From an uncultured Ignavibacteria bacterium (lineage in GTDB: Bacteria > Zixibacteria > MSB-5A5 > DSPP01): a stretch of DNA of 64,000 nucleotides. The notes below the pieces were generated by a model. That model was not told the origin of the DNA, made no database searches, and saw only the letters and a list, made by a program, of their open reading frames with translations. A program made the translations under genes and the position numbers. The stretch spans positions 13,492 through 77,491 of the forward strand of contig CAZSIT010000005.1 of assembly GCA_964607165.1 (NCBI GenBank). Direction: 5' to 3'. Of this stretch, positions 37,786 through 59,240 are shown piece after piece (positions within the stretch are counted from its first letter, which is position 1; the number at the start of each line of letters is the position of its first letter).

Positions 37786-37810
37786 GGGCGAACACGAGGT
37801 TCGCCCCTAC
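37786..37810. repeat. REP: GGGCGAACACGAGGTTCGCCCCTAC.
   Basis: It is almost identical to the REP at 1673-1700. Confidence 0.7.
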
Positions 37811-37977
37811 GAAACATTTTGGCGTTGCTTGCGGTTGAAAATAGGGCTGGAACTGTGGCCCTCTTTTGCCGTATATTATACGGTCGGGCGGGCATGACCC
37901 CGCCTCTGTACCAGTTTCTCCCCGGCTTCCCCGCCTGTCCGAGCTCCGATGCAATCGGAGCCAGGAGGGCAATCTCT

Positions 37978-42734: not shown

Positions 42735-43529
42735 ATGGCGGATGTAGCCACAAACCTTACTCAAGTTCTCACCCTGTACGATAAAGAACGCCAGGAGGCA
42801 GCGCCTGCTGGCATCAGGCGGGAAGCAACCCCGAATATTGTCCTGCTTATCGATCTTGCCGGCAGGGAAAGCACGGTCATTTACACTCGTCTTACCAGCG
42901 AGAACGTTGAAAGCACAATCCGCGGGGAAATAGAGTATTTCGAAAATATGGGGCAGGATTTTGAATGGAAAGTCTTTGCGCACGATACGCCGGCTGACCT
43001 GAAGGCCCGCCTGATAGCCCAGGGTTTTGAGGCCGAAGAGCCGGAAGCTATTTTGGTGCTCGATTTGCAGGAAATGCCAGAGACCCTGTTGCCGCCGGTT
43101 TCCCGGGACGTGCGGCGCATTGCCGACCCGGGCAAAATTAACGATGTTCTCACCGTGCTGGAAGAGGTATGGAAGGAAGACCGCAGCTGGCTGACCCGGC
43201 GATTGGCCGCAGAATTGCGCACTATTCCGGAGTATCTCAGCGTCTACGTGGCCTACGCGGATGGAGCGCCGGTCAGCACGGCTTGGATATATTTTCCCAG
43301 GCGGGGCCCGTTCGCCAGCCTGTTTGGAGGTTCAACTCTTCCCGCCTACCGCAAGCGCGGCCTTTATACGGCCTTGCTGGCCGTGCGTGCCCAAGAAGCG
43401 CATCGTCGGGGGGTGCGTTTTCTGACGGTGGATGCACAAGCGATGAGCCGTCCAATTCTGGAGAAATTCGATTTTCAACTGTTGACTTGGGCCTGTGCCT
43501 GCACGTGGCGCGTTAACCGTCCGCGTTGA
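42735..43529 (+). CDS. GNAT family acetyltransferase with an N-terminal accessory domain.
   Basis: It has C-terminal GNAT motif A (YRKRGLYTALLA). Confidence 0.65.
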   Translation: MADVATNLTQVLTLYDKERQEAAPAGIRREATPNIVLLIDLAGRESTVIYTRLTSENVESTIRGEIEYFENMGQDFEWKVFAHDTPADLKARLIAQGFEAEEPEAILVLDLQEMPETLLPPVSRDVRRIADPGKINDVLTVLEEVWKEDRSWLTRRLAAELRTIPEYLSVYVAYADGAPVSTAWIYFPRRGPFASLFGGSTLPAYRKRGLYTALLAVRAQEAHRRGVRFLTVDAQAMSRPILEKFDFQLLTWACACTWRVNRPR

Positions 43530-43596
43530 AAATGTCAAACATTACCATAAAGGTGCTGACCAAAGAAATTCGCCTGGAAGCGCTTATTCTTTTGGA

Positions 43597-44391
43597 ATGA
43601 GACTGAAAATTTATCAAGTGGACGCCTTCACCGACCGGCCGTTCGCCGGAAATCCGGCGGGGGTCTGCATTCTTCCTCAAGCAGGAGATGAAAAGTGGAT
43701 GCGGGATGTGGCGCGGGAGATGAACGTAGCAGAGACCGCTTTTTTAGTCAAACAAAGCGACGGCTACAACCTGCGCTGGTTTACGCCTGCCGTCGAGGTT
43801 GACCTGTGCGGCCACGCCACGCTCGCCTCGGCACATATTTTGTGGGAAACGGGGCAGCTGCCTTCTAATCAACAGGCGAAATTTCATACCAAAAGCGGGC
43901 TTTTGACGGCGGCGCAGAAAGGAAAACATATCGAAATGGATTTTCCGGCGACTCCCGCAGAACCAATAAATCCTCCGGACGGCTTGTTAGGGGCTCTGGG
44001 GGTAGCCCCGGCGTATGTCGGGAAAAATCGGTTTGACTATTTAGTAGAGGTTGATTCCGAAAAAACCGTTCGCGATTTGAAACCAGATTTTCGGTTGATT
44101 AAAGAGCTGGGTGGACGGGGAGTAATCGTCACCAGCCGTTCCGCTTCTGCGCAATATGATTTTGTCTCCCGTTTCTTTGCTCCCGCGGCGGGGATTGACG
44201 AAGACCCGGTGACCGGCTCGGCGCATTGCACGCTGGGGCCATATTGGTCTAAAAAACTGGAGAAAAACGAGATGATTGCTTACCAAGCATCATTTCGTGG
44301 AGGAGTGGTGCAGGTTCGGGTTAGCGGCGACCGGGTGTTTCTGGGTGGGCAAGCGGTGACGGTTTTGCAGGCGGAACTTATTGGAGTTTGA
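43597..44391 (+). CDS. PhzF-family (DAP-epimerase fold) isomerase.
   Basis: It has the PhzF N-terminus KIYQVDAFTDRPFAGNPAGVC and a C-terminal GSAHC motif. Confidence 0.85.
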   Translation: MRLKIYQVDAFTDRPFAGNPAGVCILPQAGDEKWMRDVAREMNVAETAFLVKQSDGYNLRWFTPAVEVDLCGHATLASAHILWETGQLPSNQQAKFHTKSGLLTAAQKGKHIEMDFPATPAEPINPPDGLLGALGVAPAYVGKNRFDYLVEVDSEKTVRDLKPDFRLIKELGGRGVIVTSRSASAQYDFVSRFFAPAAGIDEDPVTGSAHCTLGPYWSKKLEKNEMIAYQASFRGGVVQVRVSGDRVFLGGQAVTVLQAELIGV

Positions 44392-44829: not shown

Positions 44830-45045
44830 ATGAATACGTTCAAGTGGCTGGTTGCCCTAATCTTGCTGGCTCTCGGCGCCATTGCCATTTTTCAAAATAT
44901 GGAAACGGTATCAATCAAGTTTCTGATTTATACGGTTTCCATCTCGCGGGCGCTATTGATTTTGGGTTCTATTTTGGTGGGAGTGATTTTGGGGATGTTA
45001 TATGCCAACACGCTATTAAAACGGCGGGAGCAGAAAAAGAAGTAA
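44830..45045 (+). CDS. LapA/DUF1049-like small inner-membrane protein.
   Basis: It has two TM helices, a basic C-terminal tail and a strong AAAGGAGGAGGG RBS. Confidence 0.5.
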   Translation: MNTFKWLVALILLALGAIAIFQNMETVSIKFLIYTVSISRALLILGSILVGVILGMLYANTLLKRREQKKK

Positions 45046-45174
45046 TTTATGACTTCGACAACTTAAAAAAAAACGGTTGCCTTTGGAAACCGCTTTGGTT
45101 TTCTTGTGTATCATAAATGGTAGGCCGGCAGAGTGCCGTCCTTTTGAAAAACTTTAACTTTTTTAGGAGGTTTT

Positions 45175-45546
45175 ATGGATGCTCCCGTAGTTCATTTTGA
45201 AATCCCGGCCAAAAATCCGGAAACGCTCTCCGGTTTTTATACCGGCATTTTCGGCTGGAAAATCGAAAAGGTTCCTGGTATGGATTATTGGATGGTTAAT
45301 ACCAAATCCACGCAGGAAGCGCCCGGCATCAACGGCGGATTGATGAAGAAAATGTCCGACCAGCACGTTCCCACCAACTACGTCAACGTCACCTCCGTGG
45401 ACGACTGGAGCAAAAAGGTGAAGGAGGCAGGCGGGATGGTGGTAATGCCCAAAAAGGCGGTGCCTTCAATGGGGCATTTTGCTGTCTGTTTAGACCCGGA
45501 AGGGAACTGCTTTGGGCTCTGGCAAGATGACCCAAGCGCCAAGTAA
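45175..45546 (+). CDS. VOC (glyoxalase/bleomycin-resistance/dioxygenase) family protein.
   Basis: VHFEIPAKNPETLSGFYTGIFGW is the VOC N-terminal beta-alpha-beta-beta-beta module. Confidence 0.75.
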   Translation: MDAPVVHFEIPAKNPETLSGFYTGIFGWKIEKVPGMDYWMVNTKSTQEAPGINGGLMKKMSDQHVPTNYVNVTSVDDWSKKVKEAGGMVVMPKKAVPSMGHFAVCLDPEGNCFGLWQDDPSAK

Positions 45547-45560
45547 TTTTTCCACCCTTC

Positions 45561-45593
45561 AAGCCCCTTCCTTGTGGAAGGGGCTTTTTTTTT
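45561..45593 (+). terminator. Rho-independent terminator (AAGCCCCTTCC-ttgt-GGAAGGGGCTT plus T9).
   Basis: A perfect 11-bp stem is followed by a long T tract 15 nt after the VOC stop. Confidence 0.7.
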
Positions 45594-45604
45594 GTTGACT
45601 TTGA

Positions 45605-46402
45605 TTGGTCAAAAGCTACTTTTTTGCCGTGCGGAAACGATTCCTGCTTTCGGTTTGTGCCGGTTTACTTTTTTCATCAACTTCCCAGGCCCGGTTTGTG
45701 CCGAAATGGTTTGGGCGGATTTCGGGCGGCTATTCGTATTGGAAGCTGGATGACTTAAATCAACGGATTGAAAACCGGGGGCCATTTTTCAATAAAGTTG
45801 GTGAATCAAACTATTTTTTTGAACGGTTGCCTTCCAGTCATCCTTCCTTTAACCTAGGAGTGCAGTACGATCTATTTACTAAAATCTCGTTTCTTGCCAC
45901 CTTTGAATATCGCCAGGCGACCCGGGAAAATGGAGCGACCAACGACAGTTTCCGGGTAGAGGGAATAACCCGCCCACGGCAAATCAATTTTGGATTGGAT
46001 GGGTTTTGGCGGTTGGGTCCAAAAGGCGAGCTTATGATTGGAGGCGGTAGCGGCGTATCTTTCGCCCGCTTTCGGGATGATATTCGAATTTTTGACCGGC
46101 GCACCGAACCCGACTCGCTTACCGAGTTTTTTCTGGAAAAGTACAGTGCCGTTGCAATCTTTGGCGAGCTCCGAGCTATTTACTTTTTATCCTTTGCGCT
46201 GTTTTCCGACCAGCGTTTTTTTCTGGAAGCTTTAGGACGGCTCAATCCGATAGAGCCCTTTGTCGGAACTACAAATAAAGATGGCAACGTTTTTTACGAT
46301 GTCGAGGCCACTTTTTTTCCGCCGGGGGTTTCCACGTCCAAGCCGGTGAAATTGGACTTTTCCGGTTTTTATCTGGGGTTTGGGGCGGACTTTCGGCTGT
46401 AG
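45605..46402 (+). CDS. Putative outer-membrane beta-barrel protein.
   Basis: It has a TTG start, a signal peptide, alternating amphipathic beta-strand pattern and a C-terminal ...FGADFRL. Confidence 0.45.
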   Translation: MVKSYFFAVRKRFLLSVCAGLLFSSTSQARFVPKWFGRISGGYSYWKLDDLNQRIENRGPFFNKVGESNYFFERLPSSHPSFNLGVQYDLFTKISFLATFEYRQATRENGATNDSFRVEGITRPRQINFGLDGFWRLGPKGELMIGGGSGVSFARFRDDIRIFDRRTEPDSLTEFFLEKYSAVAIFGELRAIYFLSFALFSDQRFFLEALGRLNPIEPFVGTTNKDGNVFYDVEATFFPPGVSTSKPVKLDFSGFYLGFGADFRL

Positions 46403-46411
46403 GGTTCCCAA

Positions 46412-47938
46412 ATGTCGCCGACCGCACGCATCCGCATTTGGGCTTCTGTACATCCGCTCGGGTTTCTTTTAGCTATCGGCCTTATTCTCCGGCTGCTTGC
46501 CGCCGTTTTCGCGCGCGGATATATGGGCACCGATGACCACTTTCAGGTTATCGAGATTGCCGCCGATTGGGAGCGCGGCCATCCGGTTTTTCTGTCGGGG
46601 GACTCCCAGTTTTACCGCTCGCTTCTTTATCCCGGTCTGAATTGGGTTTTGATGGCTTTTTTACACAAGCTCGGAGTTTACCACCCCGATACGGTGATGC
46701 TGATCAATCGGCTCTTGCATGCTCTGCTTTCCCTGTGGACGATAGCACTGACCTATAAGTTCGGACTGCTTCTGGCCGACCGACGGACGGCATTCACAGC
46801 CGCACTTTTGGTCGCCGCCTATGCGGTAATGCCATATGTGGCCGTGCGCAATTTGATTGAATCGTTTTGTATGCCTTTTCTATTATGGGGACTGTATGAA
46901 ACGGCCAAAGTAGAAATGAAGAAATCCGAAAAACCCGAGCGCTCGTGGGCTTGGGCCGGGTTGGCTTTCGGCCTGGCCTTTATCATTCGCTGGCAGGTGG
47001 CGGCCGCGATTTTGGGCGTCGGTCTATATTGGCTTCATCGAAAGCAGTGGCGTGGCTTGGCCTTAGCAACTGTCTTTGGATTGCTTCCGGTCCTGGCGGA
47101 AGCCGTCTGGGACTGGTGGGCACACGGAGTTTTCTTTGGTTCGTTCTGGGCATATATCAAGCACAATCTGGCCCATTCCCGCGATTACGTGGTCGGCCCC
47201 TGGTATCGCTATTTGCTTTTGCTTCTGGGAATTCTCATTCCACCCTTTTCCTTTCTGTTTTTAGCCGCCATCGTGCGCTGGGTCAAACGCTTTGGAGTTT
47301 TGATTTGGGCTGCGCTTGCTTTTTTGATTATCCATTCCGTCGTCCCCGGCAAGCAGGAACGCTTTATTTTGCCCGTCTTTCCGCTTCTGGCCTTGATGGG
47401 AACGGCCGGGCTGCAGTTCTGGGAAGAAAAGAAGCCGTTGCTCGGGCCGTGGATTCGGGGCGGTTGGATTTGGTTCTGGAGCGTGAATACCGTTTTGCTT
47501 TTCGTTGCCATTTTCAACTACGGCCAGAAGGCGCGGGTTGCATCTTTCGTTTACCTTTACGAACGGGGGGATGCCCGAGGGGTAGTGGTCGATTTCACCG
47601 AGCGGGGGACGCTTTTGCCGCTGTATTACTTGGACGGCGCCGATCCCTCGCGGCCAAGACCGGAGATATATCGGGCGTACAGCCCGGCCGATTTCGACAG
47701 TTTGCGCTTGCGGCATTTGGGTATAATGGTCCCGCCGGTTGTGCCTCTGAACTATGTCATTATCTTTTCGCAGGGGAAGTTGGAGGAGCATTTAAAAGTG
47801 ATTAACGACCATCTGGCGCGGGCGGAAGTGCTCGCCCATATCCCTCCCTGCCTCGCCGACCGGATTTTGCTCTGGCTCAACCCGAAATACAATCACTCCA
47901 AAGAGGCCTGGGTTTGCCGGTTGGAAATTGCGAAGTGA
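46412..47938 (+). CDS. GT-C fold membrane glycosyltransferase resembling the GT22 family (Alg9/PIG-B-type mannosyltransferases).
   Basis: It is multi-TM with a first-loop motif GTDDHFQVIEIA, comparable to the conserved (D/E)EHFQS motif of GT22 enzymes. Confidence 0.55.
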   Translation: MSPTARIRIWASVHPLGFLLAIGLILRLLAAVFARGYMGTDDHFQVIEIAADWERGHPVFLSGDSQFYRSLLYPGLNWVLMAFLHKLGVYHPDTVMLINRLLHALLSLWTIALTYKFGLLLADRRTAFTAALLVAAYAVMPYVAVRNLIESFCMPFLLWGLYETAKVEMKKSEKPERSWAWAGLAFGLAFIIRWQVAAAILGVGLYWLHRKQWRGLALATVFGLLPVLAEAVWDWWAHGVFFGSFWAYIKHNLAHSRDYVVGPWYRYLLLLLGILIPPFSFLFLAAIVRWVKRFGVLIWAALAFLIIHSVVPGKQERFILPVFPLLALMGTAGLQFWEEKKPLLGPWIRGGWIWFWSVNTVLLFVAIFNYGQKARVASFVYLYERGDARGVVVDFTERGTLLPLYYLDGADPSRPRPEIYRAYSPADFDSLRLRHLGIMVPPVVPLNYVIIFSQGKLEEHLKVINDHLARAEVLAHIPPCLADRILLWLNPKYNHSKEAWVCRLEIAK

Positions 47939-47968
47939 AATAAATGGACACTTTGGCCGACTTTCCGC

Positions 47969-47996
47969 TTGACTTGAGTACAGGAGGCGGTATATT
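47969..47996 (+). promoter_or_regulatory. Sigma70-like promoter TTGACT-N16/17-TATATT for the leader-dapF-trp operon.
   Basis: It has consensus hexamers and is followed by a GGAGG RBS and a leader ORF. Confidence 0.5.
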
Positions 47997-48016
47997 AAAT
48001 AGTAGGAGGTCGAAAA

Positions 48017-48091
48017 ATGAAGGAATTAATCCGCTCGCAGACTCGTTTGAATTGGGGTTGGTATTGGCTGTTCTGCTTGCGGGTGGGTTAG
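48017..48091 (+). CDS. Trp-rich leader peptide MKELIRSQTRLNWGWYWLFCLRVG (24 aa).
   Basis: GGAGG lies 7 nt upstream of the ATG. Three Trp codons fall within five codons (48053-48067). The ORF stops 21 nt before an intrinsic terminator. Confidence 0.55.
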   Translation: MKELIRSQTRLNWGWYWLFCLRVG

Positions 48092-48111
48092 GACTTTTTT
48101 CCTTTAAACTT

Positions 48112-48136
48112 AGCCCGCCCTCGGCGGGCTTTTTTG
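48112..48136 (+). terminator. Attenuator terminator (GCCCGCC-ctc-GGCGGGC plus T6) between the leader peptide and dapF.
   Basis: A GC hairpin and U-run lie 37 nt upstream of the dapF ATG. An alternative pairing of CGGGTGGG (the leader 3' end) with CCCGCCC is possible. Confidence 0.6.
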
Positions 48137-48172
48137 TTGGCTGAAAATGCTGGAAAGTCGGAAATTGAGCGA

Positions 48173-48994
48173 ATGAATCTGAAATTTCATAAAATGGAAG
48201 CGGCTGGAAACGACTTTATTTTGATAGAGCGGAAGAAACTGCCGGAGAACATGCTTGCCGCTCTGGCCAAAAAGTTGTGCCACCGGCATACGGGAGTAGG
48301 TGGGGATGGCCTGATTGTACTCGAAAAAGGGCGGGTGGCGGAGTGGCGGATGAGGATTTTTAACGCCGACGGCTCGGATGGGCAGACTTCGGGAAACGGA
48401 GCACGCTGCCTGGCGCACCTCCTTTACCAATCTATGCGCCAGCGGGGTAATCGCGTGGTATTTGAGACTAGCCGGGGAGCTTTGGAAGTGGTGTGCTTGC
48501 GGGAGAATTATTATCGAGTCAATATGGGGCAGCCGGTTTGGGAAGCAGAGAGGATTCCTTTGAATTCGACGGAGAATGCTTTCATAAATCGCCCGATTGA
48601 GTCGGGCGGACAAACTTTTTTGGGGACGGCCGTTTCGGTGGGAAACCCCCATCTGGTATTATTCGTCGATTCGATTCCCTCCGATTGGCGGGAGCTGGGA
48701 AAAAAGTTGGAACGGCACCCGCTTTTCCCCCAGGGAGTAAACGTGGAGTTTGCCCGGGTTCGAAATAAAAAATCGGTAATTTTGGTGGTCTGGGAGCGGG
48801 GGGTGGGAGAGACTTTGGCTTGTGGGAGCGGTTCGGTCGCCGTCCTTGCGGCGGGGGTTCTAACCGGACGTTTGGCGCGAAGGGCAAAGATTAAAATGCC
48901 GGGCGGAGTTTTGGACGTGGAGTGGAAAATAAACGGCTCTCTCTATCTCTCCGGGCCGGTGCGGCAGGTTTTTTCGGGGGAGATGGAGCTGTGA
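48173..48994 (+). CDS. dapF: Diaminopimelate epimerase.
   Basis: Its N-terminus is MNLKFHKMEAAGNDFIL and it has catalytic Cys motifs (GNGARC, ACGSGS). The start was taken at the ATG after the attenuator. Confidence 0.88.
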   Translation: MNLKFHKMEAAGNDFILIERKKLPENMLAALAKKLCHRHTGVGGDGLIVLEKGRVAEWRMRIFNADGSDGQTSGNGARCLAHLLYQSMRQRGNRVVFETSRGALEVVCLRENYYRVNMGQPVWEAERIPLNSTENAFINRPIESGGQTFLGTAVSVGNPHLVLFVDSIPSDWRELGKKLERHPLFPQGVNVEFARVRNKKSVILVVWERGVGETLACGSGSVAVLAAGVLTGRLARRAKIKMPGGVLDVEWKINGSLYLSGPVRQVFSGEMEL

Positions 48995-50469
48995 CTTCGT
49001 TTGAAGAATTTGAGGCCTTAGCCCGGCAGGGAAACGTGGTTCCGGTTTGGGAGGAAGTGCCGGCTGACCTTTTGACGCCGGTTTCGGCTTTTCTGCGAAT
49101 TTCGAAAGGGACAAAATATGCTTTTCTTTTGGAATCGGTGGAAGGCGGAGAGAAATTAGCGCGCTATTCTTTTTTGGGAGCCAATCCGAAATTAGTTTTT
49201 CAAAGCAGGGGGAATCGGGTGACGGTTTTGGCCGGCACCACAAGGAAAAGTCGTATAGTGAAAAATCCTCTGGATGAAATGAAAAGCTTTTTTTCGGTTT
49301 ACAAAGCTCCGCAGGTGGCCGGTCTGCCCCGCTTTTGGGGCGGGGGGGTGGGGTATTTTGGCTATGATTTGGTGCGGCATATTGAGAAGCTTCCCGTCCG
49401 GAAAAAAGAGGAGCTTGGTTTTCCGGATTTATGTTTGGGTTTGTACGACAGCGTATTAATTTTTGACCATTTGAAACATAAAATCATAATCGTGCGCTCC
49501 GTTTCGCTGAAAGAGCCGGCGGTCACGGCCAAAAAATTGTATTTGGCCGCCGTTCGCGACGTCTTGGCCATCAAACAAAAATTGGAAAAGCCGTTTGCCC
49601 TGCCAAAAAAGCGAGGCTCAAAATTCCAACCGGATGTTCCGGTTTCCAACATTTCCAGAGAAAAATTTATTTCGGCGGTGAAGATTGCCAAAGATTACAT
49701 CACCGCCGGCGATATTTTTCAGGTGGTGCTCTCCCAGCGCTTTTCGGTTCCACTGCGAGCGGAAAGTTTTTCGGTTTACCGGGCGCTGCGGTCGGTCAAT
49801 CCGTCCCCGTATCTCTATTTTTTGAAAATGGATAAGTTTTCGGCGGCCGGTTCTTCGCCGGAGATGCTGGTGCGGGTGGAGGAGGGTTTTGCCGAAACGC
49901 GGCCGATAGCCGGTACCCGTCCAAGGGGAAAAAACGAAGAGGAAGACCGGCGGCTGGCCAAAGAGCTTTTGGGGGATGAAAAGGAAACGGCGGAGCACGT
50001 GATGTTAGTCGATTTGGGGCGCAACGACATCGGACGGATTGCCGAAGCGGGGAGCGTTTGCCTGACCGACCGGATGAAAGTCGAGAAATATTCACACGTG
50101 ATGCACATCGTTTCCGGGGTGCGGGGGAAGGTGCGCCCGGATGTCGGCTGTTTTGACGCGCTGGCCGCCTGCTTTCCGGCCGGGACGGTTACCGGCGCTC
50201 CCAAGGTGCGGGCGATGGAAATAATCGAAGAGTTGGAGAGTTCCCGGCGGGGGATTTACGCCGGAGCGGTGGGATATTTCGATTTTTCCGGAAATCTGGA
50301 CAGCTGCATTGCGATTCGAACCGTGGTATGCAGCAGGGAAAAAGCTTACGTTCAGGCGGGAGCGGGTATCGTTTACGACTCCGTGCCGGAGCGGGAGTAT
50401 GACGAAACGGTTTCCAAAGCGGCGGGGATGCTTGCGGCGATAAATCGGGCGAATCGCGGAGAAATATGA
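48991..50469 (+). CDS. trpE: Anthranilate synthase component I.
   Basis: It has TrpE motifs (LLESVEGG, full chorismate-binding domain). The GTG start overlaps the dapF stop (GTGA). Confidence 0.92.
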   Translation: MTSFEEFEALARQGNVVPVWEEVPADLLTPVSAFLRISKGTKYAFLLESVEGGEKLARYSFLGANPKLVFQSRGNRVTVLAGTTRKSRIVKNPLDEMKSFFSVYKAPQVAGLPRFWGGGVGYFGYDLVRHIEKLPVRKKEELGFPDLCLGLYDSVLIFDHLKHKIIIVRSVSLKEPAVTAKKLYLAAVRDVLAIKQKLEKPFALPKKRGSKFQPDVPVSNISREKFISAVKIAKDYITAGDIFQVVLSQRFSVPLRAESFSVYRALRSVNPSPYLYFLKMDKFSAAGSSPEMLVRVEEGFAETRPIAGTRPRGKNEEEDRRLAKELLGDEKETAEHVMLVDLGRNDIGRIAEAGSVCLTDRMKVEKYSHVMHIVSGVRGKVRPDVGCFDALAACFPAGTVTGAPKVRAMEIIEELESSRRGIYAGAVGYFDFSGNLDSCIAIRTVVCSREKAYVQAGAGIVYDSVPEREYDETVSKAAGMLAAINRANRGEI

Positions 50470-51044
50470 TTTTTCTTTTGGATAATTATGATTCGTTTAC
50501 TTACAATCTGTATCAATATATGCTGGAGCTGGGAGAAGAAGTGAAAGTGGCGCGCAACAATGAGGTCACGACGGCGGCGGTTGAGAATCTTTCTCCTGCA
50601 GCAATAGTGATTTCTCCCGGGCCTAGGCGGCCGGAGGAGGCGGGAATTTCCCTAGAATTAGTGCGGATGCTGGGGGAAAGAATTCCGATTCTGGGAGTTT
50701 GTCTGGGACACCAGGCCATCGGCTTCGCTTTTGGAGCGGAAATAGTCGGAGCCAAGCGGATTATGCACGGGAAAGTTTCCGCAATTGGGCACGATGGCAA
50801 AACAATTTTTGAAAATTTGGAAAATCCCTTTTTTGCCACCCGCTATCATTCGTTGACAGTAGAACCTTCATCTGTTCCCCCTGATTTGGAAGTTTCGGCC
50901 ACGGCGGATGATGGCACGATAATGGGGTTGAGGCACCGGCGTTTTAAAATTGAGGGGGTGCAGTTCCATCCGGAGTCTTTTTTGACTTCCTGCGGGAAAA
51001 AGTTGCTGGCTAATTTTCTAAAAGTGGCGAAGGCTAATGCTTAG
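50466..51044 (+). CDS. trpG: Anthranilate synthase component II (glutamine amidotransferase).
   Basis: It has the class I GATase triad context (GVCLGHQ, HPES). Confidence 0.9.
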   Translation: MIFLLDNYDSFTYNLYQYMLELGEEVKVARNNEVTTAAVENLSPAAIVISPGPRRPEEAGISLELVRMLGERIPILGVCLGHQAIGFAFGAEIVGAKRIMHGKVSAIGHDGKTIFENLENPFFATRYHSLTVEPSSVPPDLEVSATADDGTIMGLRHRRFKIEGVQFHPESFLTSCGKKLLANFLKVAKANA

Positions 51045-52050
51045 AGCGTATTTGCAAAAAGTGGTTGCGGGCGAAATTTTAACATTGGCCGAGGCGCAGA
51101 AGGTAATGGAGCTGATTATGTCAGGCGTTGCGCCGCCGGTTCAAATCGGTGCCTTGGCGACCGCTTTGCGCTTGCGGGGAGAGACGGTGGAGGAGTTGGT
51201 GGGGTTCGCTTCGGTAATGCGGGAGCGAGCTGTGAAAATAAAGGATTCTGACCCAAAGGCGGTGGATACTTGCGGGACGGGAGGAGATGGAGCCGGCACC
51301 TTCAACATCTCCACGGCGGCGGCTTTGATCGCAGCGGGCGCCGGAGCAACGGTCGTCAAGCATGGCGGGCGGGGAGTTTCCTCCGCTTGCGGTTCGGCGG
51401 ATGTTCTGGCAGAGTTGGGTGTAAACATCGAAGCTGTGCCGGAAGTAGTGGAGCGGAATGTCAATGAAATTGGCATCGGCTTTTGCTTTGCCCCGGTTTT
51501 TCATCCGGCGATGGCCGCGGCAGCGCCAATACGCAAAGAATTAGGCATCCGCACTTTCTTCAACTTCTTGGGACCGCTGTCCAATCCGGCAGGAGTAAAA
51601 CGTCAGGTTTTGGGAGTTTTCCATTCGGATTGGACGGTGAAGTTGGCCAGCGTGCTGAAACAGATGGGAAGTGAGCATTCGCTGGTTTTTTCCAATGAAG
51701 GCGGTCTGGATGAACTTTCTTTTGCTCACCCTTCGAGAGTCTCGGAATTGGCAAATGAAAAAATTGAAAATTATCGATTAGAAACGAACGGGTGGGGGTA
51801 TCCTGCGACTAATTCGGCCGAGCTTTCCGGCTCTACCGCTACAGAAAACGCGAAAATAATTTGGAGTATACTTAAAGGAGAAAAGGGCCCCCGGCGGGAT
51901 GTGGCGGTTTTAAATGCGGCGGCGGCTATTTATGTCGCCGGTAAAACCGGCTCGATTCGGGAGGGTTTGCCTGTGGCGGAAGAGGCGATTGATTCGGGAC
52001 GGGCCTTTGAGAAACTGGAGCAGCTGATAAAAGAGAGTAATCGGCGATGA
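51037..52050 (+). CDS. trpD: Anthranilate phosphoribosyltransferase.
   Basis: It carries the GTGGDG and KHGGR motifs. Confidence 0.92.
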   Translation: MLRAYLQKVVAGEILTLAEAQKVMELIMSGVAPPVQIGALATALRLRGETVEELVGFASVMRERAVKIKDSDPKAVDTCGTGGDGAGTFNISTAAALIAAGAGATVVKHGGRGVSSACGSADVLAELGVNIEAVPEVVERNVNEIGIGFCFAPVFHPAMAAAAPIRKELGIRTFFNFLGPLSNPAGVKRQVLGVFHSDWTVKLASVLKQMGSEHSLVFSNEGGLDELSFAHPSRVSELANEKIENYRLETNGWGYPATNSAELSGSTATENAKIIWSILKGEKGPRRDVAVLNAAAAIYVAGKTGSIREGLPVAEEAIDSGRAFEKLEQLIKESNRR

Positions 52051-52838
52051 ACGTGCTGCAGGCGATTTTTGCTCGTACGAGGAAGGAATTAAAAAAGCAA
52101 AAACGGGCGGTTCCGATTGATTCGATGATGCGCAGTATGGCGCTTTCGCGGCCGCGCTTTCTGGAAGCCTTGAAAAAGCCCGGGCCTTCCATCATCGCGG
52201 AGTTCAAACGGGCTTCCCCTTCGGAGGGTGCAATTTGTTCCACGGGGAAAGCGGAAGAAATCGCCACCGCTTATACTTCCGCCGGCGCCACGGCTTTGTC
52301 CGTGCTGACGGAGAAAAATTATTTTTCCGGCTCTTCCGGGGATTTGATAGCGGCCAGAAAAAACTCCAGTTTACCTATTTTGCGGAAAGATTTCATTTTG
52401 GATGGGTATCAAATCGTCGAGACCAAAAGCTGGGGGGCGGATGCGATTTTGATTATCGCGGCTTTGCTCAACGACAAAAAACTCTACGGTTTTTTGCAGG
52501 CCAGCCGGCGCTGGGAACTGGATGCGGTAGTCGAGGTGCACAGCAAAAGCGAGGTAGAGCGGGCCTTGGCTTTTGGGGCGGATATCATTGGAGTCAACAA
52601 CCGCGATTTGAAAACGATGAAGGTTGATGTACGCGTCTCTTTTGAGCTGGCGGAGAAAATGGATGGGCGGACTGTTTTTATAAGCGAGTCGGGCATCGAT
52701 TCGCCGGAAACGGTTGCCAAGCTCTATAAGTTAGGATACAAAGGATTCCTGATAGGCACGCATTTTATGAAACAGCCGGAGCCGGGCAAAGCTTTGTCCC
52801 GATTTATTGCCGACTTAAAGAAATTGACCCATGCTTAA
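52047..52838 (+). CDS. trpC: Indole-3-glycerol phosphate synthase.
   Basis: It has the IAEFKRASPS motif and a TIM barrel. Confidence 0.9.
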   Translation: MNVLQAIFARTRKELKKQKRAVPIDSMMRSMALSRPRFLEALKKPGPSIIAEFKRASPSEGAICSTGKAEEIATAYTSAGATALSVLTEKNYFSGSSGDLIAARKNSSLPILRKDFILDGYQIVETKSWGADAILIIAALLNDKKLYGFLQASRRWELDAVVEVHSKSEVERALAFGADIIGVNNRDLKTMKVDVRVSFELAEKMDGRTVFISESGIDSPETVAKLYKLGYKGFLIGTHFMKQPEPGKALSRFIADLKKLTHA

Positions 52839-53451
52839 AGTAAAAATTTGCGGCATAACCAATCTCAAAGACGCTCTGCTGGCGGAAAAGTTGGGCGCCG
52901 ACATGCTGGGGTTTATTTTTTATCTTAATAGCTCGCGTTACGTAGTGCCGTCGCGGGTGGGCAAAATAATTCCCCTGCTTTCGCCGTTTACCCGCACGGC
53001 GGGTGTATTCGTTAACGAATCTGTTTCAAAAGTTCTGCGGATTGCTCGAAATCTGAAATTGGATTTTGTACAGCTGGCGGGAGAGGAAAGCCCCGGTTAC
53101 ATCAAAAAAATACAGAGCGTCTTTCCGGTGATAAAGGCTTTTCGAGTCGGTTCCGATTTCAGGCTTTCCACCGTCCGGCGCTCACCGGCTCGGCTGCGGC
53201 TGGTTGATTCCAACGTGGACGGTTTTTACGGTGGCAGCGGAAGAACTTTTGATTGGAAAAACATTTCTTCTCTCAAAGGGGATTCCCGGCTGATGCTGGC
53301 GGGCGGCCTCGGCACTGAAAATATCCGAGAAGCATACGAAACGCTTCAACCGGCGGCGGTCGACTTGACCAGTTCAATGGAGGCCCGCCCCGGGAAAAAA
53401 GACCCGGCCAAGCTGAAAAATTTTTTTGAGGTGGTAAATGAGCTACGTTAG
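52831..53451 (+). CDS. trpF: Phosphoribosylanthranilate isomerase.
   Basis: KICGIT...GADMLGFIF is typical of TrpF. Confidence 0.85.
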
Positions 53452-54640
53452 GGCCGTTAAAAATTACCGCTGGCCGGATAGAAGCGGACATTTTGGCCCG
53501 TACGGCGGGCGTTTTGTGCCCGAGACTTTGATGGCGCCGCTTTTTCTTCTGGAAAAAGAATACCTGAAAGCCAAAAAAGATCCGAAGTTTCGAACGGAGC
53601 TAAAAACGGTTTTGGCTGATTATGCGGGAAGGCCTTCACCTTTATTTTTTGCTGAGCGGACTTCGAAAAAGTTGGGGTTTGATTTATATCTGAAGCGCGA
53701 AGATTTGAATCATACCGGCGCGCATAAAATCAACAATACCCTGGGACAAGTTTTGCTGGCTTTGCGAATGGGAAAGCGGCGCATCATTGCCGAAACGGGA
53801 GCCGGGCAGCACGGGCTGGCGACGGCCACGGTGTGCGCCAAGTATGGGTTGGAGTGCGTGGTTTATATGGGAGAGGAGGATGTGCGCCGGCAGGCGCCCA
53901 ACGTCTATAAGATGAAACTTTTAGGGGCGAAAGTTATTTCGGTTTCTTCAGGAGCCAAAACTTTGAAGGATGCCACCAACGAGGCGTTGCGGGATTGGGT
54001 TACCAACGTTCGAACAACATTCTATATCATCGGCTCGGTGGTGGGACCGCATCCCTACCCGATGATGGTGCGGGATTTTCAGTCGGTCATCGGCAGAGAG
54101 ACAAAAATTCAATTTGCCAAAATGAAAGGAGGGTTGCCGGATTATCTGATTGCCTGCGTGGGGGGCGGCTCTAACGCCATCGGGCTTTTTTGTCCATTTT
54201 TGAAAACCAAAGTGAAGATGATTGGGGTGGAGGCGGCCGGTTTGGGTCTTTCGACCCATCACCATTCCGCCACTTTGACCAAAGGGAGGCCGGGAGTTTT
54301 GCACGGGAGCAAAAGTTATCTTTTGCAGAACGCCGACGGCCAGGTGCAGCTGCCGCACTCCATTTCCGCCGGTCTGGATTATCCGGGAGTGGGGCCGGAA
54401 CATTCGTTTCTCAAGGATGCGGGGCGAGTGGAGTATCAAATCGCCAGCGACCGGGAAGCGCTGGAAGGGTTTCGTTTTCTTTCGCAAACGGAGGGGATTA
54501 TTCCGGCTCTTGAGCCGGCACACGCTTTAGGGTATCTACTGAAAGGAAATAAGCGTTTTAGCGGCCGTTCGGTTATTTGCTGTCTTTCGGGGCGCGGCGA
54601 CAAGGATATGGGAATTGTTCGGGAGCGATTGAAAATATGA
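53438..54640 (+). CDS. trpB: Tryptophan synthase beta chain.
   Basis: It has the PLP lysine motif HTGAHKINN and GGGSNAIG. Confidence 0.95.
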
Positions 54641-55428
54641 ACCGGATCGGGAAGTTCTGGAAAAAGGGAAAAAAAGCTTTGGTGCCTTTCGTTACGGCCG
54701 GGTTTCCCCATAAAAATTTCACGCCGGAGTTGATTCTGGCGCTGGCTGACGCAGGAGCCGATATGGTGGAAATTGGCATTCCTTTTTCCGACCCGGTGGC
54801 GGATGGGCCGACCATTCAGGCTTCTTCGCAAGTCGCTTTGCAAAACGGTTTACGGTTGAAAGATATTTTTCGCCAGGTAGAGAAAATTCGCGCCAAGTCG
54901 GATATTCCTTTGCTTTTGATGGGATATTACAATCCGATTCTGGCCTGCGGATTGGAAAAGTTTGCACAGGCGGCATCCAATGCCGGCGTGGACGGTTTGA
55001 TAGTTCCCGATTTGCCGCCGGAGGAGGGGAATGGTTTGGGAACCGCCTGTCGCAAAGCCGGTTTATCGCTGGTTTACCTGATTGCCCCAACCACGCCGCC
55101 GGAGCGGATTTCAAAAATCGGAAAGGCTTCGAACGGTTTTTGCTACTGCGTTTCGACCACGGGCGTTACCGGGGAACGAAAAAAATTGAGCGCGGGCTTG
55201 AAAGATTTTTTACTTTGCGTGCGGATGCGAACCAAAAAGCCCTTTGTAGTCGGGTTTGGGATTTCGACGCCAGAGCAGGCGGCTACCCTTGCCCCCCTGG
55301 CCGACGGCGTCGTGGTGGGCAGCGCGTTGGTGCAAATATTTTTGGAGGACGAAAATCGGCGGTCGGCTTTGCGCAAAGCTTGCAGGCTGGTTAAGAAAAT
55401 GGCGGAAGGGTTGAATGGAATTGGATGA
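54637..55428 (+). CDS. trpA: Tryptophan synthase alpha chain.
   Basis: It carries TAGFP, YYNPIL and GVDG motifs. The ATG overlaps the trpB stop (ATGA). Confidence 0.9.
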
Positions 55429-55696
55429 ACTGCGCAAACAAATCGATGATTTGGATCGCCGCCTGGTTCTTCTTTTGAACCAGCGGGCGCGTTTAGTAGA
55501 GGAAGTCGGGAAGGTTAAGAAGCGGTCAGGTATGGAAGTTTACGCTCCGGAGCGGGAGAAGGAGATTTTGAAGCTGGTAATCGATACCAATGGCGGGCCT
55601 TTTTCCAGCTCCGCCATCGTGCGGCTGTTCGAGCGTATTTTAGATGAGTCGCGCAGTTTGGAGCGCCACGTTGCCGAGGATGCGAAGGGGAAATAG
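55415..55696 (+). CDS. Chorismate mutase (AroQ class).
   Basis: [33 protein letters not shown] is the AroQ helical bundle signature. Confidence 0.75.
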   Translation: MELDELRKQIDDLDRRLVLLLNQRARLVEEVGKVKKRSGMEVYAPEREKEILKLVIDTNGGPFSSSAIVRLFERILDESRSLERHVAEDAKGK

Positions 55697-56710
55697 ATGG
55701 TTATCGTAATGCAGCCGGGGGCTAAAGAAGAAGAGATTCAAAAAGTAATCGAGCGGCTGGTGGAAAAAGGGTTTGATGTGCACCGCTCCACCGGCGCCGA
55801 GCGAACCGTTCTGGGAGCCATCGGCAACAAAAATGGCATCGACATCCGTGATTTTGAAATTTTAGACGGGGTGCACGAAGTTCTGCGCATCAGCGAACCG
55901 TACAAGTTAGCGGGCCGAACGTTTCAGCGCGAAGATACGCGCATCATGGTTGGCGGAGTAACCATCGGCGGGCCGGAGGTGGTGGTGATGGCCGGGCCCT
56001 GCTCGGTGGAAAGCCGCCAGCAGATTAAAACCATCGCCAAGCTGGTCAAAGAGGCAGGCGCGAAGGTTCTGCGGGGTGGGGCTTTCAAGCCGCGCACCTC
56101 GCCTTACTCTTTTCAGGGTCTGGGTGAAGAAGGTTTGAAATACCTGCGCGAAGCGGCGGATGCCAATGGGCTTTTGACCGTGTCGGAAATTATGGACTGG
56201 ATGGATATCCCCCTCGCCATCCGCTACATCGATATCATCCAGATCGGCGCGCGCAACATGCAGAATTTTACGCTCTTGAAAGAACTGGGAAATTTGAACA
56301 AGCCGATTTTGCTCAAGCGGGGGATGGCAGCGACCATCGAGGAACTTTTGATGGCGGCGGAATACATAATGTCCGGCGGCAACCGGCAGGTGATTTTGTG
56401 CGAACGGGGAATCCGCACCTTTGAAAATTCGACCCGCAACACCTTGGACATTTCCGCCATTCCGGTGGTGAAAAAGAAATCGCATTTGCCGATTATCGCC
56501 GACCCTTCGCACGGCACCGGTTTGCGCGACCACGTCGCGCCGATGGCCCGGGCGGCGGTTGTCGCCGGCGCGGACGGGCTTTTAATCGAGGTCCATCAGG
56601 AGCCAGACCAGGCGCTTTCGGACGGGGCCCAGTCGCTTTTCCCTGAGCAGTTTGCGGAGTTGATGAAAGAATTGAAAATTATGGCGCAGGCGATAGGCCG
56701 AACAATTTAA
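55697..56710 (+). CDS. 3-deoxy-7-phosphoheptulonate (DAHP) synthase, type I-beta, with an N-terminal ferredoxin-like regulatory domain.
   Basis: It has the KDO8PS/DAHPS I-beta core ([24 protein letters not shown]). Confidence 0.9.
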
Positions 56711-58407
56711 TGCAAGCGTTCAAAATTGAAATCGCCCGCAAGTTGGCAGAAAAAATTGGAGCGGAATGGGAGGCGGTGGTCAAAGATATCGAAGTGCCGC
56801 CGCAATCGGAGTTTGGAGATTTTGCCTTTCCCTGCCACGGGCTGGCCAAGATTTTGAAAAAAAACCCGGTTCAAATCGCCGCCGAACTGGCGGCAACGCT
56901 CGCGGTCGGCAACGGAATAAGGCGGATTGAGGCAAAGGCGGGATATGTCAATTTTTGGATTGAGCGAACGAAAGCGACCGGAGAAGTTCTGCGGCAGGTT
57001 TTTTCGCAAAAGGAAAACTACGGTTCGAGCGCAGTTGGGAACGGCAAAACGATTGTCATAGATTTCTCCTCCCCCAATATCGCCAAACATTTTGGCGTGG
57101 GGCACTTACGCTCGACTGCCATCGGGCATTCGCTGACGCGGATTTACAAGAAACTTGGTTATCAAGTGGCGGGCATCAATCACCTCGGAGACTGGGGGAC
57201 TCAATTCGGCCAGTTGATTGCCGCTTTCAAGAAATGGGGGAGTGAAAACGAACTGCAACGAAACCCTATCGGCCATCTTTACGAGCTATATGTTCGCTTC
57301 CATCGTGAGGCGAAGGAAAACTCGGCTTTAGAAGAGGACGGGAGGCTCTGGTTCAAAAAATTAGAGGAAGGGAACGCAGAAGCCGCAGCGCTCTGGCAGC
57401 ATTTCAAGGACTTGAGCCTGGCGGAGTTTGAGCGGGTTTATTCCGCTCTGGGAATTCGCTTCGATTACTTCACCGGAGAAAGCTTTTACAACGACAAAAT
57501 GGAGCGGGTGATAAAGCTTCTGGCCGACAAAAACCTTTCCTCGATTTCGGAGGAGGCCTTGATTGTCGATTTGTCGGCTTATGATATGCCGCCTTTGCTT
57601 TTGAAAAAGAAAGATGAAGCCACCCTGTATTCCACGCGCGATCTGGCGGCGGCTTGGTATCGCTGGGAGACTTTCGGCTTTGAGCGTTCGCTTTACGTGG
57701 TGGGCGTGGCCCAGAGCCTGCATTTCAAGCAGCTGTTCAAAACTCTCGAGTTGGCTGGTTTTGATTGGCATTCCCGGATGGTGCACGTCGATTTCGGCTG
57801 GGTCAGGTTCGGCGATGAAATTATGGCGACGCGTGAAGGGAACGTAATCTTTTTGAAAGAAGTTCTGGACAAAGGGGTCGAACTGGCCAAGAAGACCATT
57901 TTGGAGAAAAATCCGGAATTGAAGGACGTTGAAAAGACTTCCCAAATGATTGCGGTGGGGGCGATTATGTTTGCCGATTTGTCGACCCGAAGGCATAAGG
58001 ACATCAACTTTATCTGGGAAGAAGTTTTGAACTTTGAAGGAGATACCGGGCCGTACCTGCAGTATACCCACGCCCGGCTTTCCTCCCTTTTGCGCAAATA
58101 CGGCCGACCGGTTTCGGGTAATGTCGATTTTAGCTGGCTCTCTAATGATTTGGCTTGGCCGGTGGTGCGGGAGCTGGACCGTTTTCCACAGACGGTGGCG
58201 GCGGCGGCAGAATATTACGAGCCCTCTTTTGTCGCCAGCTATCTTTTGGATTTGACCAAAGCCTTCAACGCTTTTTATCAGAAGGAGCGAATCTTGACCG
58301 ATGATGAAAAAGCTACGGCAGCGAAAGTTCTTTTGGTCGATGGTGTACGCACGATTTTGAAAGAGGGGCTTTATTTGCTCGGCATCGAAGCGCCGGAGGA
58401 GATGTGA
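56710..58407 (+). CDS. argS: Arginine--tRNA ligase.
   Basis: It has the class I HIGH-like motif (PNIAKHFGVGHLRST) and a DALR anticodon-binding domain. Confidence 0.92.
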   Translation: MQAFKIEIARKLAEKIGAEWEAVVKDIEVPPQSEFGDFAFPCHGLAKILKKNPVQIAAELAATLAVGNGIRRIEAKAGYVNFWIERTKATGEVLRQVFSQKENYGSSAVGNGKTIVIDFSSPNIAKHFGVGHLRSTAIGHSLTRIYKKLGYQVAGINHLGDWGTQFGQLIAAFKKWGSENELQRNPIGHLYELYVRFHREAKENSALEEDGRLWFKKLEEGNAEAAALWQHFKDLSLAEFERVYSALGIRFDYFTGESFYNDKMERVIKLLADKNLSSISEEALIVDLSAYDMPPLLLKKKDEATLYSTRDLAAAWYRWETFGFERSLYVVGVAQSLHFKQLFKTLELAGFDWHSRMVHVDFGWVRFGDEIMATREGNVIFLKEVLDKGVELAKKTILEKNPELKDVEKTSQMIAVGAIMFADLSTRRHKDINFIWEEVLNFEGDTGPYLQYTHARLSSLLRKYGRPVSGNVDFSWLSNDLAWPVVRELDRFPQTVAAAAEYYEPSFVASYLLDLTKAFNAFYQKERILTDDEKATAAKVLLVDGVRTILKEGLYLLGIEAPEEM

Positions 58408-59240
58408 AACCGTTCAAACGCGTCGCCATAATCGGCACCGGCCTCATCGGCGGGTCTATCGGCCTGGCTCTGCGGAAAAGCAAATTGGAGCGGATCGGCT
58501 TTGACCGTCCGGCAGTTTTGAGAGAGGCGTTAAAGCGCAAAGCGATTGACCAAAAGGCCAAAACGCTGGCGGTAGCGGTGCGCTCGGCGGATTTAATTCT
58601 GCTGGCTCTCCCGGTTGGAGATATTCTGGCGGTGCTGCCTCATCTGGTCCGAACGGCTCCGGCGAACGCCGTCATCACGGATGCGGGAAGCACCAAAAGA
58701 GAAATTTGTGGGCTGGCCCATCAACTGGGACTGAAAAACTTCGTCGGCGGGCATCCGCTGGCCGGAAAGGAAGAAAGCGGGGTTGAAAATGCCGATGGAA
58801 AGTTGTTTGCAGACCGAAACTGGTTTCTCTGCCCCAATAAAAACTCAAAATCTTTGAGCCGGATGAAAAGTTTCGTCCACCTGTTAGGCGCAAAGCCGGT
58901 GGTTGTCGAGCCGGGTGAGCATGACCGGATTCTGGCAGCGACCTCCCACCTTCCACAGCTGATTTCAACTATTCTTGCGGCTTCGGTCGCGGAGCTTCTG
59001 GGAAAAGAGACAAACAAAATAAAAACTTTTGCCGGTTCAGGATTGAAAGACACCACCCGATTGGCCGGTTCTCCCTATTCGGTTTGGAAGGACGTTTTTG
59101 CTACCAACCGAAGTGAATTGGAGAATGCCCTCCAGAATTTCAAAATGCGGCTAAACAGCCTGTCGAACCGGTTTACTTCTACGGAACCACTGGAGCAGGA
59201 ATTTGCAATCGGGAATCGATTCAGTAAGGGCTTAGAATAA
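58404..59240 (+). CDS. tyrA: Prephenate dehydrogenase.
   Basis: It has an N-terminal Rossmann segment (VAIIGTGLIGGS) and the TyrA catalytic region. Confidence 0.85.
   Translation: MKPFKRVAIIGTGLIGGSIGLALRKSKLERIGFDRPAVLREALKRKAIDQKAKTLAVAVRSADLILLALPVGDILAVLPHLVRTAPANAVITDAGSTKREICGLAHQLGLKNFVGGHPLAGKEESGVENADGKLFADRNWFLCPNKNSKSLSRMKSFVHLLGAKPVVVEPGEHDRILAATSHLPQLISTILAASVAELLGKETNKIKTFAGSGLKDTTRLAGSPYSVWKDVFATNRSELENALQNFKMRLNSLSNRFTSTEPLEQEFAIGNRFSKGLE

Follow-up and report, generated by a model that had tools for sequence, protein, structure and literature searches.

A predicted tryptophan-codon leader-peptide attenuator ahead of a DapF-family gene and the trp genes in an uncultured bacterial lineage

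Introduction

In a 64,000-nucleotide (nt) stretch of contig CAZSIT010000005.1 (positions 13,492 to 77,491 of the forward strand; GenBank assembly GCA_964607165.1, an uncultured Ignavibacteria bacterium that GTDB places in the Zixibacteria), hereafter called the window, a very short open reading frame (ORF) with clustered tryptophan (Trp) codons lies between a promoter and a GC-rich hairpin. It is followed by a gene of the diaminopimelate epimerase (DapF) family and then by the genes of tryptophan biosynthesis. This arrangement raises two questions: is transcription of these genes controlled by a ribosome that reads the Trp codons of the leader, and what is a DapF-family gene doing in first place? 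An earlier reading of the sequence, which we call the original prediction, took the element to be a trpL-type attenuator of a dapF-trpEGDCFBA operon and proposed that diaminopimelate epimerase would be co-regulated by Trp.

On comparative and thermodynamic evidence, the element is very probably a classical transcription attenuator of the leader-peptide type, in which the translating ribosome would respond to the supply of charged tRNA-Trp. As an attenuator it is ordinary in kind; its lineage and its sequence are new. Comparative genomics has predicted attenuators of this type in several phyla other than the Proteobacteria, and to these the present locus adds a well-supported, sequence-unrelated case of the classical mechanism from an uncultured soil and sediment lineage. 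A single Trp attenuator would here precede a very long supraoperon of aromatic genes. The first gene, a homologue of DapF in which Cys73 is replaced by Ser throughout a clade and which is wired into a trp operon, provides a concrete case for probing the role of Ser-substituted DapF homologues.

Results and discussion

A short Trp-codon reading frame behind a promoter

The upstream part of the leader contains the following features.

47969-47996, forward strand: sigma-70-type promoter, with -35 TTGACT at 47969-47974, a spacer of 16 nt and -10 TATATT at 47991-47996
48004-48009, forward strand: ribosome-binding site (RBS) AGGAGG, 7 nt 5' of the leader ATG at 48017
48017-48091, forward strand: leader ORF of 24 codons, encoding MKELIRSQTRLNWGWYWLFCLRVG, with ATG at 48017 and stop codon UAG at 48089-48091
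48053-48067, forward strand: regulatory codons UGG GGU UGG UAU UGG, specifying Trp13, Trp15 and Trp17 with Tyr16 interposed

Direct reading and scans of the sequence placed the promoter, the RBS and the 24-codon ORF with its three Trp codons (48053-48055, 48059-48061 and 48065-48067) exactly where the original prediction had them. The promoter agrees with the consensus at 10 of 12 positions and is the joint best promoter-like site in a scan of the 14 kb from 45000 to 59000. Trp accounts for 1.4% of the residues in the long ORFs of the window, and among 251 ATG ORFs of 15-40 codons, counted on both strands over its whole length, the leader ORF is the sole case of three Trp in five consecutive codons. 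The spacing claimed downstream of the ORF was also borne out: 21 nt lie between its stop and the terminator arm GCCCGCC (48113-48119), and the hairpin is followed by a T6 run. The stop codon itself is situated 81 nt 5' of the ATG of the DapF-family gene, with the terminator in that interval.

Conservation of the leader in related loci

The original prediction had made the conservation of the small ORF and its Trp codons in related genomes the point on which it could fail. We collected related loci through the protein encoded by the first gene, the DapF-like protein. In the protein database it belongs to a clade of 26 proteins that are 68-100% identical, the next homologue being only 47% identical. 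In a library of representatives at 50% identity, this clade reduces to one cluster (476 bits, versus 243 for the next match), and TrpE shows the same isolated clade. Nine further clade contigs, found via the protein (68-88% identical) and hence independently of the leader sequence, make up with the window the ten DapF-derived loci. A DNA-pattern scan of metagenomes gave 44 matches, five of which were true leaders, three of them new; the remainder were chance matches within unrelated genes. The alignment used throughout comprises 13 distinct leaders, namely the ten that are DapF-derived and the three from the pattern scan. A scan of a genome collection with the DapF-like protein, using a peptide-word method that missed the clade, returned only relatives of at most 46% identity, none of which has trp genes adjoining dapF; one of these has a gene for 3-deoxy-D-arabino-heptulosonate 7-phosphate (DAHP) synthase 2.7 kb downstream of dapF.

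All ten DapF-derived loci have the same order, the leader region being followed by the dapF-like gene, trpE, trpG, trpD and trpC, with an overlap of 4 or 7 nt between the dapF-like gene and trpE. Two of these loci (L085 and L141) are without the GT22 gene that lies upstream elsewhere, yet they retain the leader ahead of the dapF-like and trp genes; thus, the leader belongs to the trp side. In two outgroup trpE loci (L142 and L143, 55-56% identity), neither a leader nor dapF was found, and consequently no older version of the element was obtained.

Both the small ORF and the Trp codons are present in the ten DapF-derived and the three pattern-found loci. Every leader has an in-frame ORF of 22, 24 or 26 codons, each insertion or deletion within the ORF being of 6 nt, and every leader has at least two Trp codons in a W-x-W core, followed by Tyr. 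The distance from the last Trp codon to the stop is 24 nt in all leaders but one, where it is 30 nt. The -35 sequence TTGACTTG and the -10 sequence TATA.T do not change across the alignment, the spacer between them being variable, and the RBS core AGGT and the leader ATG are likewise unchanged. The N-terminal part of the leader peptide is unconserved; peptide conservation is confined to the Trp cluster and to the C-terminus, which is encoded by the RNA segment described below as segment 2. No frame of the leader carries a protein-like substitution signature (synonymous fraction 0.15-0.18; 17/14/16 variable columns by codon position). In the dapF-like gene, analyzed as a control, the synonymous fraction was 0.34 in frame versus 0.07-0.10 out of frame, with 144/102/249 variable columns. 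Such substitutions are what one would expect of a leader that acts in cis and is constrained only in its start codon, reading frame, Trp codons and stop codon.

The same comparison bears on a quite different reading of the region, namely that it encodes a small protein in another frame. A 66-amino-acid (aa) ORF (47944-48144, forward strand) extends over promoter, leader and terminator; were it a gene, the Trp-rich ORF would be incidental and the hairpin a terminator or structured spacer. No stop codon interrupts the frame in any of the 13 leaders, and gene callers place a gene of 59-81 aa across the leader in six loci (L081, L082, L088, L137, L140 and L141), although no gene is called in this frame in six others (L083, L085, L087, L089, L090 and L136). 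However, the frame is without a coding signature, its synonymous fraction of 0.15 and its 16/17/14 variable columns contrasting with the values of the control gene. A protein encoded there would moreover have to cross its own promoter-like hexamers and the terminator hairpin, and its start and end vary between relatives. We rejected the 66-aa ORF on its substitution pattern and consider a small protein in this frame extremely improbable; the genes of 59-81 aa that callers annotate over the leader are probably mis-annotations.

Alternative helices in the leader RNA

The remaining features of the leader are four RNA elements that can pair in more than one way.

48026-48041, forward strand: segment 1, forming the 5' side of hairpin 1:2 (an anti-antiterminator or pause hairpin), from the minimum free energy (MFE) fold and RNAalifold
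48076-48092, forward strand: segment 2, which pairs with segment 1 (through 48076-48091) or with segment 3 (through 48081-48092) and holds the stop codon UAG at 48089-48091
48109-48120, forward strand: segment 3, the 3' strand of the 12-base-pair (bp) antiterminator, overlapping the 5' arm of the terminator
48112-48139, forward strand: intrinsic terminator AGCCCGCC-CTC-GGCGGGCT, then TTTTTGTTGG; the hairpin (48112-48130) is followed by T6

When the leaders were folded free of ribosomes, the MFE structure contained both the 1:2 hairpin and the terminator in 12 of the 13, and the terminator in all 13; RNAalifold, applied to the alignment, independently gave both helices. The terminator has an 8-bp stem with 7 G-C pairs and the T6 run (48112-48135). 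Its hairpin has a folding energy of -15.3 kcal/mol in the window and of -15.3 to -16.3 kcal/mol over all leaders, and it is nearly invariant in the relatives, with 100% of alignment cells paired. Helix 1:2 (16 pairs) has 90% of cells paired and four pairs in which both sides have changed. Its covariation score exceeds those of all 500 shuffles and of all slid registers, the latter being only 36-56% paired.

According to the original prediction, the 3' end of the leader would pair with the 5' arm of the terminator. The pairing itself was upheld, but its extent was not: around the segment 2 core CGGGTGGG (48080-48087), the antiterminator 2:3 of the window is a 12-bp helix of GGGUGGGUUAGG (48081-48092) with CUUAGCCCGCCC (48109-48120), with an energy of -19.7 kcal/mol, which is longer than was drawn and takes the stop codon into its 5' strand. 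Whether a competing antiterminator can be drawn on thermodynamic grounds at all had been named as a further point of possible failure. Folding of the leaders gave antiterminators of 12-14 bp with energies of -17.3 to -25.4 kcal/mol, versus -15.3 to -16.3 kcal/mol for the terminator. In the relatives 85-90% of the antiterminator cells are paired, compared with at most 60-67% in slid registers. The third codon positions of Leu-Arg-Ala/Val within segment 2 are invariant in the alignment, which indicates a constraint at the RNA level.

Two minor features of the leader RNA were recorded in passing. A U6 run (GGACUUUUUUCC, window positions 48093-48099) begins 3 nt past the 1:2 hairpin in the window and in L082 only, and is not kept in the other relatives; it could cause pausing or weak early termination. 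RNAalifold also pairs the A-rich start region (A-AUG-AAAA) with the U-run of the terminator in all 13 leaders (A1 columns 48-55 with 172-179, about 48016-48023 with 48134-48141 in the window), a pairing that may be mere A/U complementarity.

A proposed ribosome-dependent choice between the helices

The arrangement of these elements suggests how the leader would work. Transcription would start about 7 nt past the -10 box, near 48003, giving a leader of about 130 nt with two alternative folds. By default, segment 1 (48026-48041) would pair with segment 2 (48076-48091), so that segment 3 would be free to enter the 3:4 terminator and the polymerase would halt before the first structural gene. When Trp is ample, the ribosome would reach the UAG within segment 2 and its footprint would mask that segment, with 1:2 re-forming after release; the terminator would form either way. 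When Trp-tRNA is scarce, the ribosome would stall with a Trp codon (48053-48067) in its A site and its leading edge just 5' of segment 2. The stalled ribosome would separate the free segment 2 from segment 1, on which a second, queued ribosome might possibly sit. Segment 2 would then join the newly made segment 3 (48081-48092 with 48109-48120), the terminator would not form, and the polymerase would read through into the dapF-like gene, trpEGDCFBA and the aromatic genes downstream.

The geometry of the leader is consistent with this scheme. A ribosome with UAG in its A site would span approximately 48074-48101, which is all of segment 2, and in this situation the terminator folds in 13/13 leaders. 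A ribosome stalled at Trp13, Trp15 or Trp17 would extend to about 48065-48077 and would spare 48081-48092. The last Trp codon lies 9 nt from TTGCGGG in all leaders but one, in which the distance is 15 nt. To model the stall, we restricted folding to the RNA that lies 3' of the ribosome; this replaced a masking model in which pairs across the ribosome were allowed. In these folds, as long as the 3' arm of the terminator is yet to be made, each of the 13 leaders adopts the antiterminator; in the window, with the ribosome stalled at Trp13 or Trp15, it is the MFE structure even when the complete terminator sequence is present. Judged by coordinates and folds, the positional logic of trpL that the original prediction invoked would hold, a ribosome at the stop masking segment 2 and a ribosome at the Trp codons leaving it free. 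The leader has the sequence and structural features of its class: an in-frame short ORF with an RBS, a cluster of cognate codons, a terminator, an exclusive antiterminator and a sequestering segment 1.

Several observations weigh against this reading. Only two of the Trp codons are universal; the first varies between W, R and G, and the third is lost in one relative. Segments 1 and 2 are joined by a 34-nt loop, and it is there, outside segment 1, that the Trp codons are found. Naive masking that permits pairs across the ribosome still yields 1:2, so that this model did not discriminate; for termination to be relieved, the ribosome would have to exclude 1:2 sterically. As Trp15 is the fifteenth codon, segment 1 may also be occupied by a second ribosome queued behind the first. 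With the ribosome stalled, the terminator is the thermodynamic minimum of the full downstream RNA in about half of the relatives, and kinetic trapping must consequently be assumed; the trp operon of E. coli likewise needs kinetic trapping. The antiterminator shows no compensatory substitutions, because both its strands are almost invariant, and its support comes from conservation and energy only. Finally, the Rfam family Trp_leader (RF00513) matched at 24.6 bits, below its gathering score of 41 (E = 0.046 in a search of 2.5 kb), in an alignment driven by UGGxxUGG and the terminator. What we infer, then, is that the ribosome stalls, that its presence in the 34-nt loop sterically prevents 1:2 from forming, that the helices compete kinetically and that the genes of the long string are transcribed together.

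The conserved spacing also speaks to the possibility that no Trp sensing takes place, the hairpin acting constitutively as a partial terminator or an insulator, with a small ORF that serves only to boost downstream translation or to yield a trans-acting peptide. There are precedents for such roles, since PMC7298713 describes the S. meliloti leader peptide peTrpL as functional in trans and translation-boosting leader ORFs have been proposed (PMC4833913). Here, however, the peptide is conserved only where it is Trp cluster or segment 2, the stop is well ahead of the dapF-like ATG with the terminator between the two, and the Trp codons, the stop and segment 2 keep their precise relative positions from leader to leader. 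We regard such a non-sensing role as very unlikely.

Comparison with known regulators

Of the known systems, trpL of E. coli offers a close functional parallel to the attenuator that we propose. In both, a promoter-proximal short ORF with clustered Trp codons is combined with three overlapping helices (1:2, 2:3 and 3:4); a GC-rich terminator with its U-run precedes the first structural gene; the stop is placed such that a terminating ribosome would mask segment 2; and the untranslated leader gives 1:2 plus 3:4, the configuration of super-attenuation. The two differ in that the ORF has 24 codons here versus 14 there, without detectable sequence homology. The 2-3 Trp codons are spaced as W-x-W-x-W and lie in the 1/2 loop, whereas in E. 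coli they are adjacent and lie in segment 1. Moreover, the stop codon is within the antiterminator helix, the first controlled gene is of the DapF family and not trpE, and the gene string goes on to include genes of the common aromatic pathway and of the Tyr branch.

The leaders of the his, leu, thr, ilv and pheA genes are of the same mechanistic class, and several of them are multivalent, which invites comparison with the possible response to both Trp and Tyr discussed below; they use other regulatory codons and are not homologous to the present leader. Apart from the weak Trp_leader match, none of these families appeared at a permissive E-value in the Rfam search of the window. Neither the window nor any of 11 related loci gave a match to an Rfam family at or above the gathering score, and no curated RNA family covers the element. 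A sub-threshold match to suhB/mmgR, driven by the terminator, was rejected as evidence of membership.

Outside the enterobacteria, the S. meliloti trpL element (rnTrpL/peTrpL) is also a ribosome-dependent Trp attenuator with a Trp-codon upstream ORF before trpE, according to PMC6614838 and PMC7298713. As described there, it controls trpE(G) only, unlike the predicted attenuator of the window; its released RNA and its peptide both act in trans.

Since other lineages place their trp operons under a trans-acting factor, as in the TRAP system of B. subtilis (PMC3064811), and since a terminator with alternative structures suits any attenuation mechanism, we also considered control by a TRAP-like protein, by tRNA binding to a T-box or by a riboswitch ligand. 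The TRAP and T-box Trp leaders resemble the present element in making a choice between antiterminator and terminator upstream of trp genes, but their sensor is a protein or an uncharged tRNA instead of the translating ribosome, and the present leader lacks the RNA features that define them. Searches of the window at E-values of up to 10 gave no T-box or riboswitch match, and in the 11 relatives no such family reached the gathering score. In a leader of only about 130 nt there are just three adjacent (U/G)AG triplets (48000-48008), compared with the approximately 9-11 spaced repeats of a TRAP site. Moreover, trans-acting models leave the conserved RBS, ATG, frame, Trp codons and stop position unexplained, and we give them next to no credence.

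A long string of aromatic genes

The genes downstream of the leader, as identified with NCBIfam and Pfam models, are listed here in order.

48173-48994, forward strand: dapF-like gene, DapF family, 273 aa (TIGR00652)
48991-50469, forward strand: trpE (NCBIfam), with a GTG start that overlaps the stop of the dapF-like gene
50466-51044, forward strand: trpG (NCBIfam equivalog)
51037-52050, forward strand: trpD (NCBIfam equivalog)
52047-52838, forward strand: trpC (NCBIfam equivalog)
52831-53451, forward strand: trpF (NCBIfam equivalog)
53438-54640, forward strand: trpB (NCBIfam equivalog)
54637-55428, forward strand: trpA (NCBIfam equivalog), with ATG at 54637 and an ATGA overlap with the trpB stop
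55415-55696, forward strand: chorismate mutase (NCBIfam/Pfam)
55697-56710, forward strand: first DAHP synthase (NCBIfam/Pfam)
56710-58407, forward strand: argS (NCBIfam/Pfam)
58404-59240, forward strand: prephenate dehydrogenase, tyrA (NCBIfam/Pfam)
59242-60267, forward strand: second DAHP synthase (NCBIfam/Pfam)
60251-61756, forward strand: aroA (NCBIfam/Pfam)
61753-62613, forward strand: aroE (NCBIfam/Pfam)

Two details of the original prediction had to be changed. The ATG of the dapF-like gene is at 48173, not at 48175, and the operon, given as dapF-trpEGDCFBA, was drawn too short: by overlaps and abutments the string runs on through aroE. The GTGA overlap (48991-48994) that was thought to couple the translation of the dapF-like gene and trpE is real, and overlaps of 4 or 7 nt are also found in the gene calls of the relatives. 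The downstream genes include a complete trp pathway, in which each gene from trpG to trpA overlaps its neighbors. Past trpA (55415-62613) the genes are overlapping or abutting throughout, and aroK and aroB, which take the string to 63218 and beyond, come after a gap of 53 nt. From these overlaps and spacings we infer distal co-transcription, in which case the attenuator would head an aromatic supraoperon of at least 15 genes. Since an essential gene, that for arginyl-tRNA synthetase, is embedded in the string, internal promoters are likely.

The content of this string raises the question whether the leader responds to Tyr as well as to Trp. The Tyr codons interleaved with the Trp codons (W-G-W-Y-W-Y) could make the attenuator multivalent, which would extend the proposed Trp-sensing mechanism and not replace it. 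A Tyr codon follows the W-x-W core in 13/13 leaders, once through a synonymous change from TAT to TAC, and a second one is present in 9/13. A stall at Tyr16 (48062-48064) would, by its coordinates, likewise leave segment 2 free, and Tyr sensing would suit an operon with tyrA, chorismate mutase, two DAHP synthases and aro genes of the common pathway. Set against this, there are just one or two Tyr codons, and known multivalent leaders carry several of each kind; conservation of the Tyr codon could reflect needs of the RNA sequence; and the dependence of the distal genes on the leader promoter is only putative. A dual response is therefore a possibility that we hold to be rather unlikely.

One of the outgroup loci, L142, has a different arrangement of its own. 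There a his operon (hisB, hisH, hisA, hisF, hisIE) runs into trpE, which overlaps its end and is followed by trpG, D, C and F, giving a fused his-trp string without a leader.

A DapF-family protein with Ser73 as the first gene product

The protein encoded by the first gene scores 263.1 bits against TIGR00652, the model for DapF (EC 5.1.1.7), for which the cutoff is 114.65, and Pfam PF01678 matches it in two stretches. It is like DapF of H. influenzae (1GQZ/2GKE) in that it matches the model and the solved structures over its full length, and the engineered C73S mutant 2Q9H is among the top PDB matches. It differs from canonical DapF in having Ser in place of Cys73 and in the position of its gene in a trp operon behind a predicted Trp attenuator. 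In the PDB alignment, Ser73 (TCG, 48389-48391) stands where the H. influenzae enzyme has catalytic Cys73, and Cys217 is kept. Only one of the two catalytic cysteines is thus present, and the combination of Ser73 with Cys217 recurs in 26/26 clade members. The other 94 listed homologues have Cys at this position in 92 cases and Ser in one (P0048), the last one falling outside the motif pattern. For the DapF of C. glutamicum, PMC5296763 describes both cysteines as catalytic and as partners in a regulatory, redox-switch disulfide.

Within the clade the Ser73 codon varies between TCG, TCT and TCC, and Ser is therefore maintained by selection. Alignment to solved DapF structures further shows that Asn11, Asn64, Gly74, Asn75, Asn157, His159, Asn190, Glu208 and Arg209 are kept. 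The residues that we take to bind diaminopimelate (DAP), namely Asn11, Asn64, Gly74, Asn75, Asn157, Asn190, Glu208, Arg209, Gly218 and Ser/Thr219, are all present. The N-terminal motif HGLGND reads EAAGND. Among the 148 nearest representatives of 50%-identity clusters, 10 (about 7%) have Ser at position 73, six of them with Ser at both catalytic positions. A literature search on dapF in trp operons, on C73S and on tryptophan regulation in Zixibacteria found nothing relevant.

How far the original prediction holds for this gene differs between its parts. The placement of dapF as the first gene is firm: throughout the clade, the trp operon begins with a gene of the DapF family that is translationally coupled to trpE. 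Given the clade-wide Ser73, the role of its product as a DAP epimerase is only putative. The proposed co-regulation of diaminopimelate epimerase by Trp may be right, but the gene so regulated could just as well be a paralogue that does something else. The MurE of the window is of the meso-DAP type (NF001126, 522 bits; DNPR motif), and the cell would therefore need meso-DAP. One version of the second view is that the Ser73 protein is not the housekeeping epimerase but a neofunctionalized paralogue recruited to tryptophan or aromatic metabolism, acting perhaps as a racemase of amino acids, as an enzyme that works with one base or in one direction, or as a partner without catalytic activity. Such recruitment would be the reason why the gene is fixed in first place behind a Trp (perhaps Trp and Tyr) attenuator and coupled to trpE. 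We put this forward tentatively, as an idea with the odds against it.

The ten cluster representatives with Ser at position 73 come from other lineages (P0254, P0273, P0303, P0310, P0316, P0318, P0334, P0363, P0373 and P0387). A gene for a PhzF-family isomerase, PhzF and DapF being of the same fold superfamily, lies at 43495-44391, about 4 kb upstream; this synteny is conserved in L082, L085, L087 and L137. The upstream order is PhzF, a LapA-domain protein, a cupin, a glyoxalase, a 258-aa protein, GT22 and then the leader.

Lineage and surroundings

Elsewhere in the window, the regions 36157-38336 and 17060-31277 hold two tRNA genes and a transfer-messenger RNA (183.8 bits), together with the dcw cell-wall and division cluster that includes the meso-DAP-type MurE. 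The window also encodes Lnt and a PorZ-like protein of the type IX secretion system (7213-9462), which suggests a diderm of the FCB group. The labels of the metagenome-assembled genomes in the clade conflict, naming candidate division Zixibacteria, Verrucomicrobiae and Limisphaerales (L085, GCA_973680415.1; L087, GCA_035574275.1; protein P0017).

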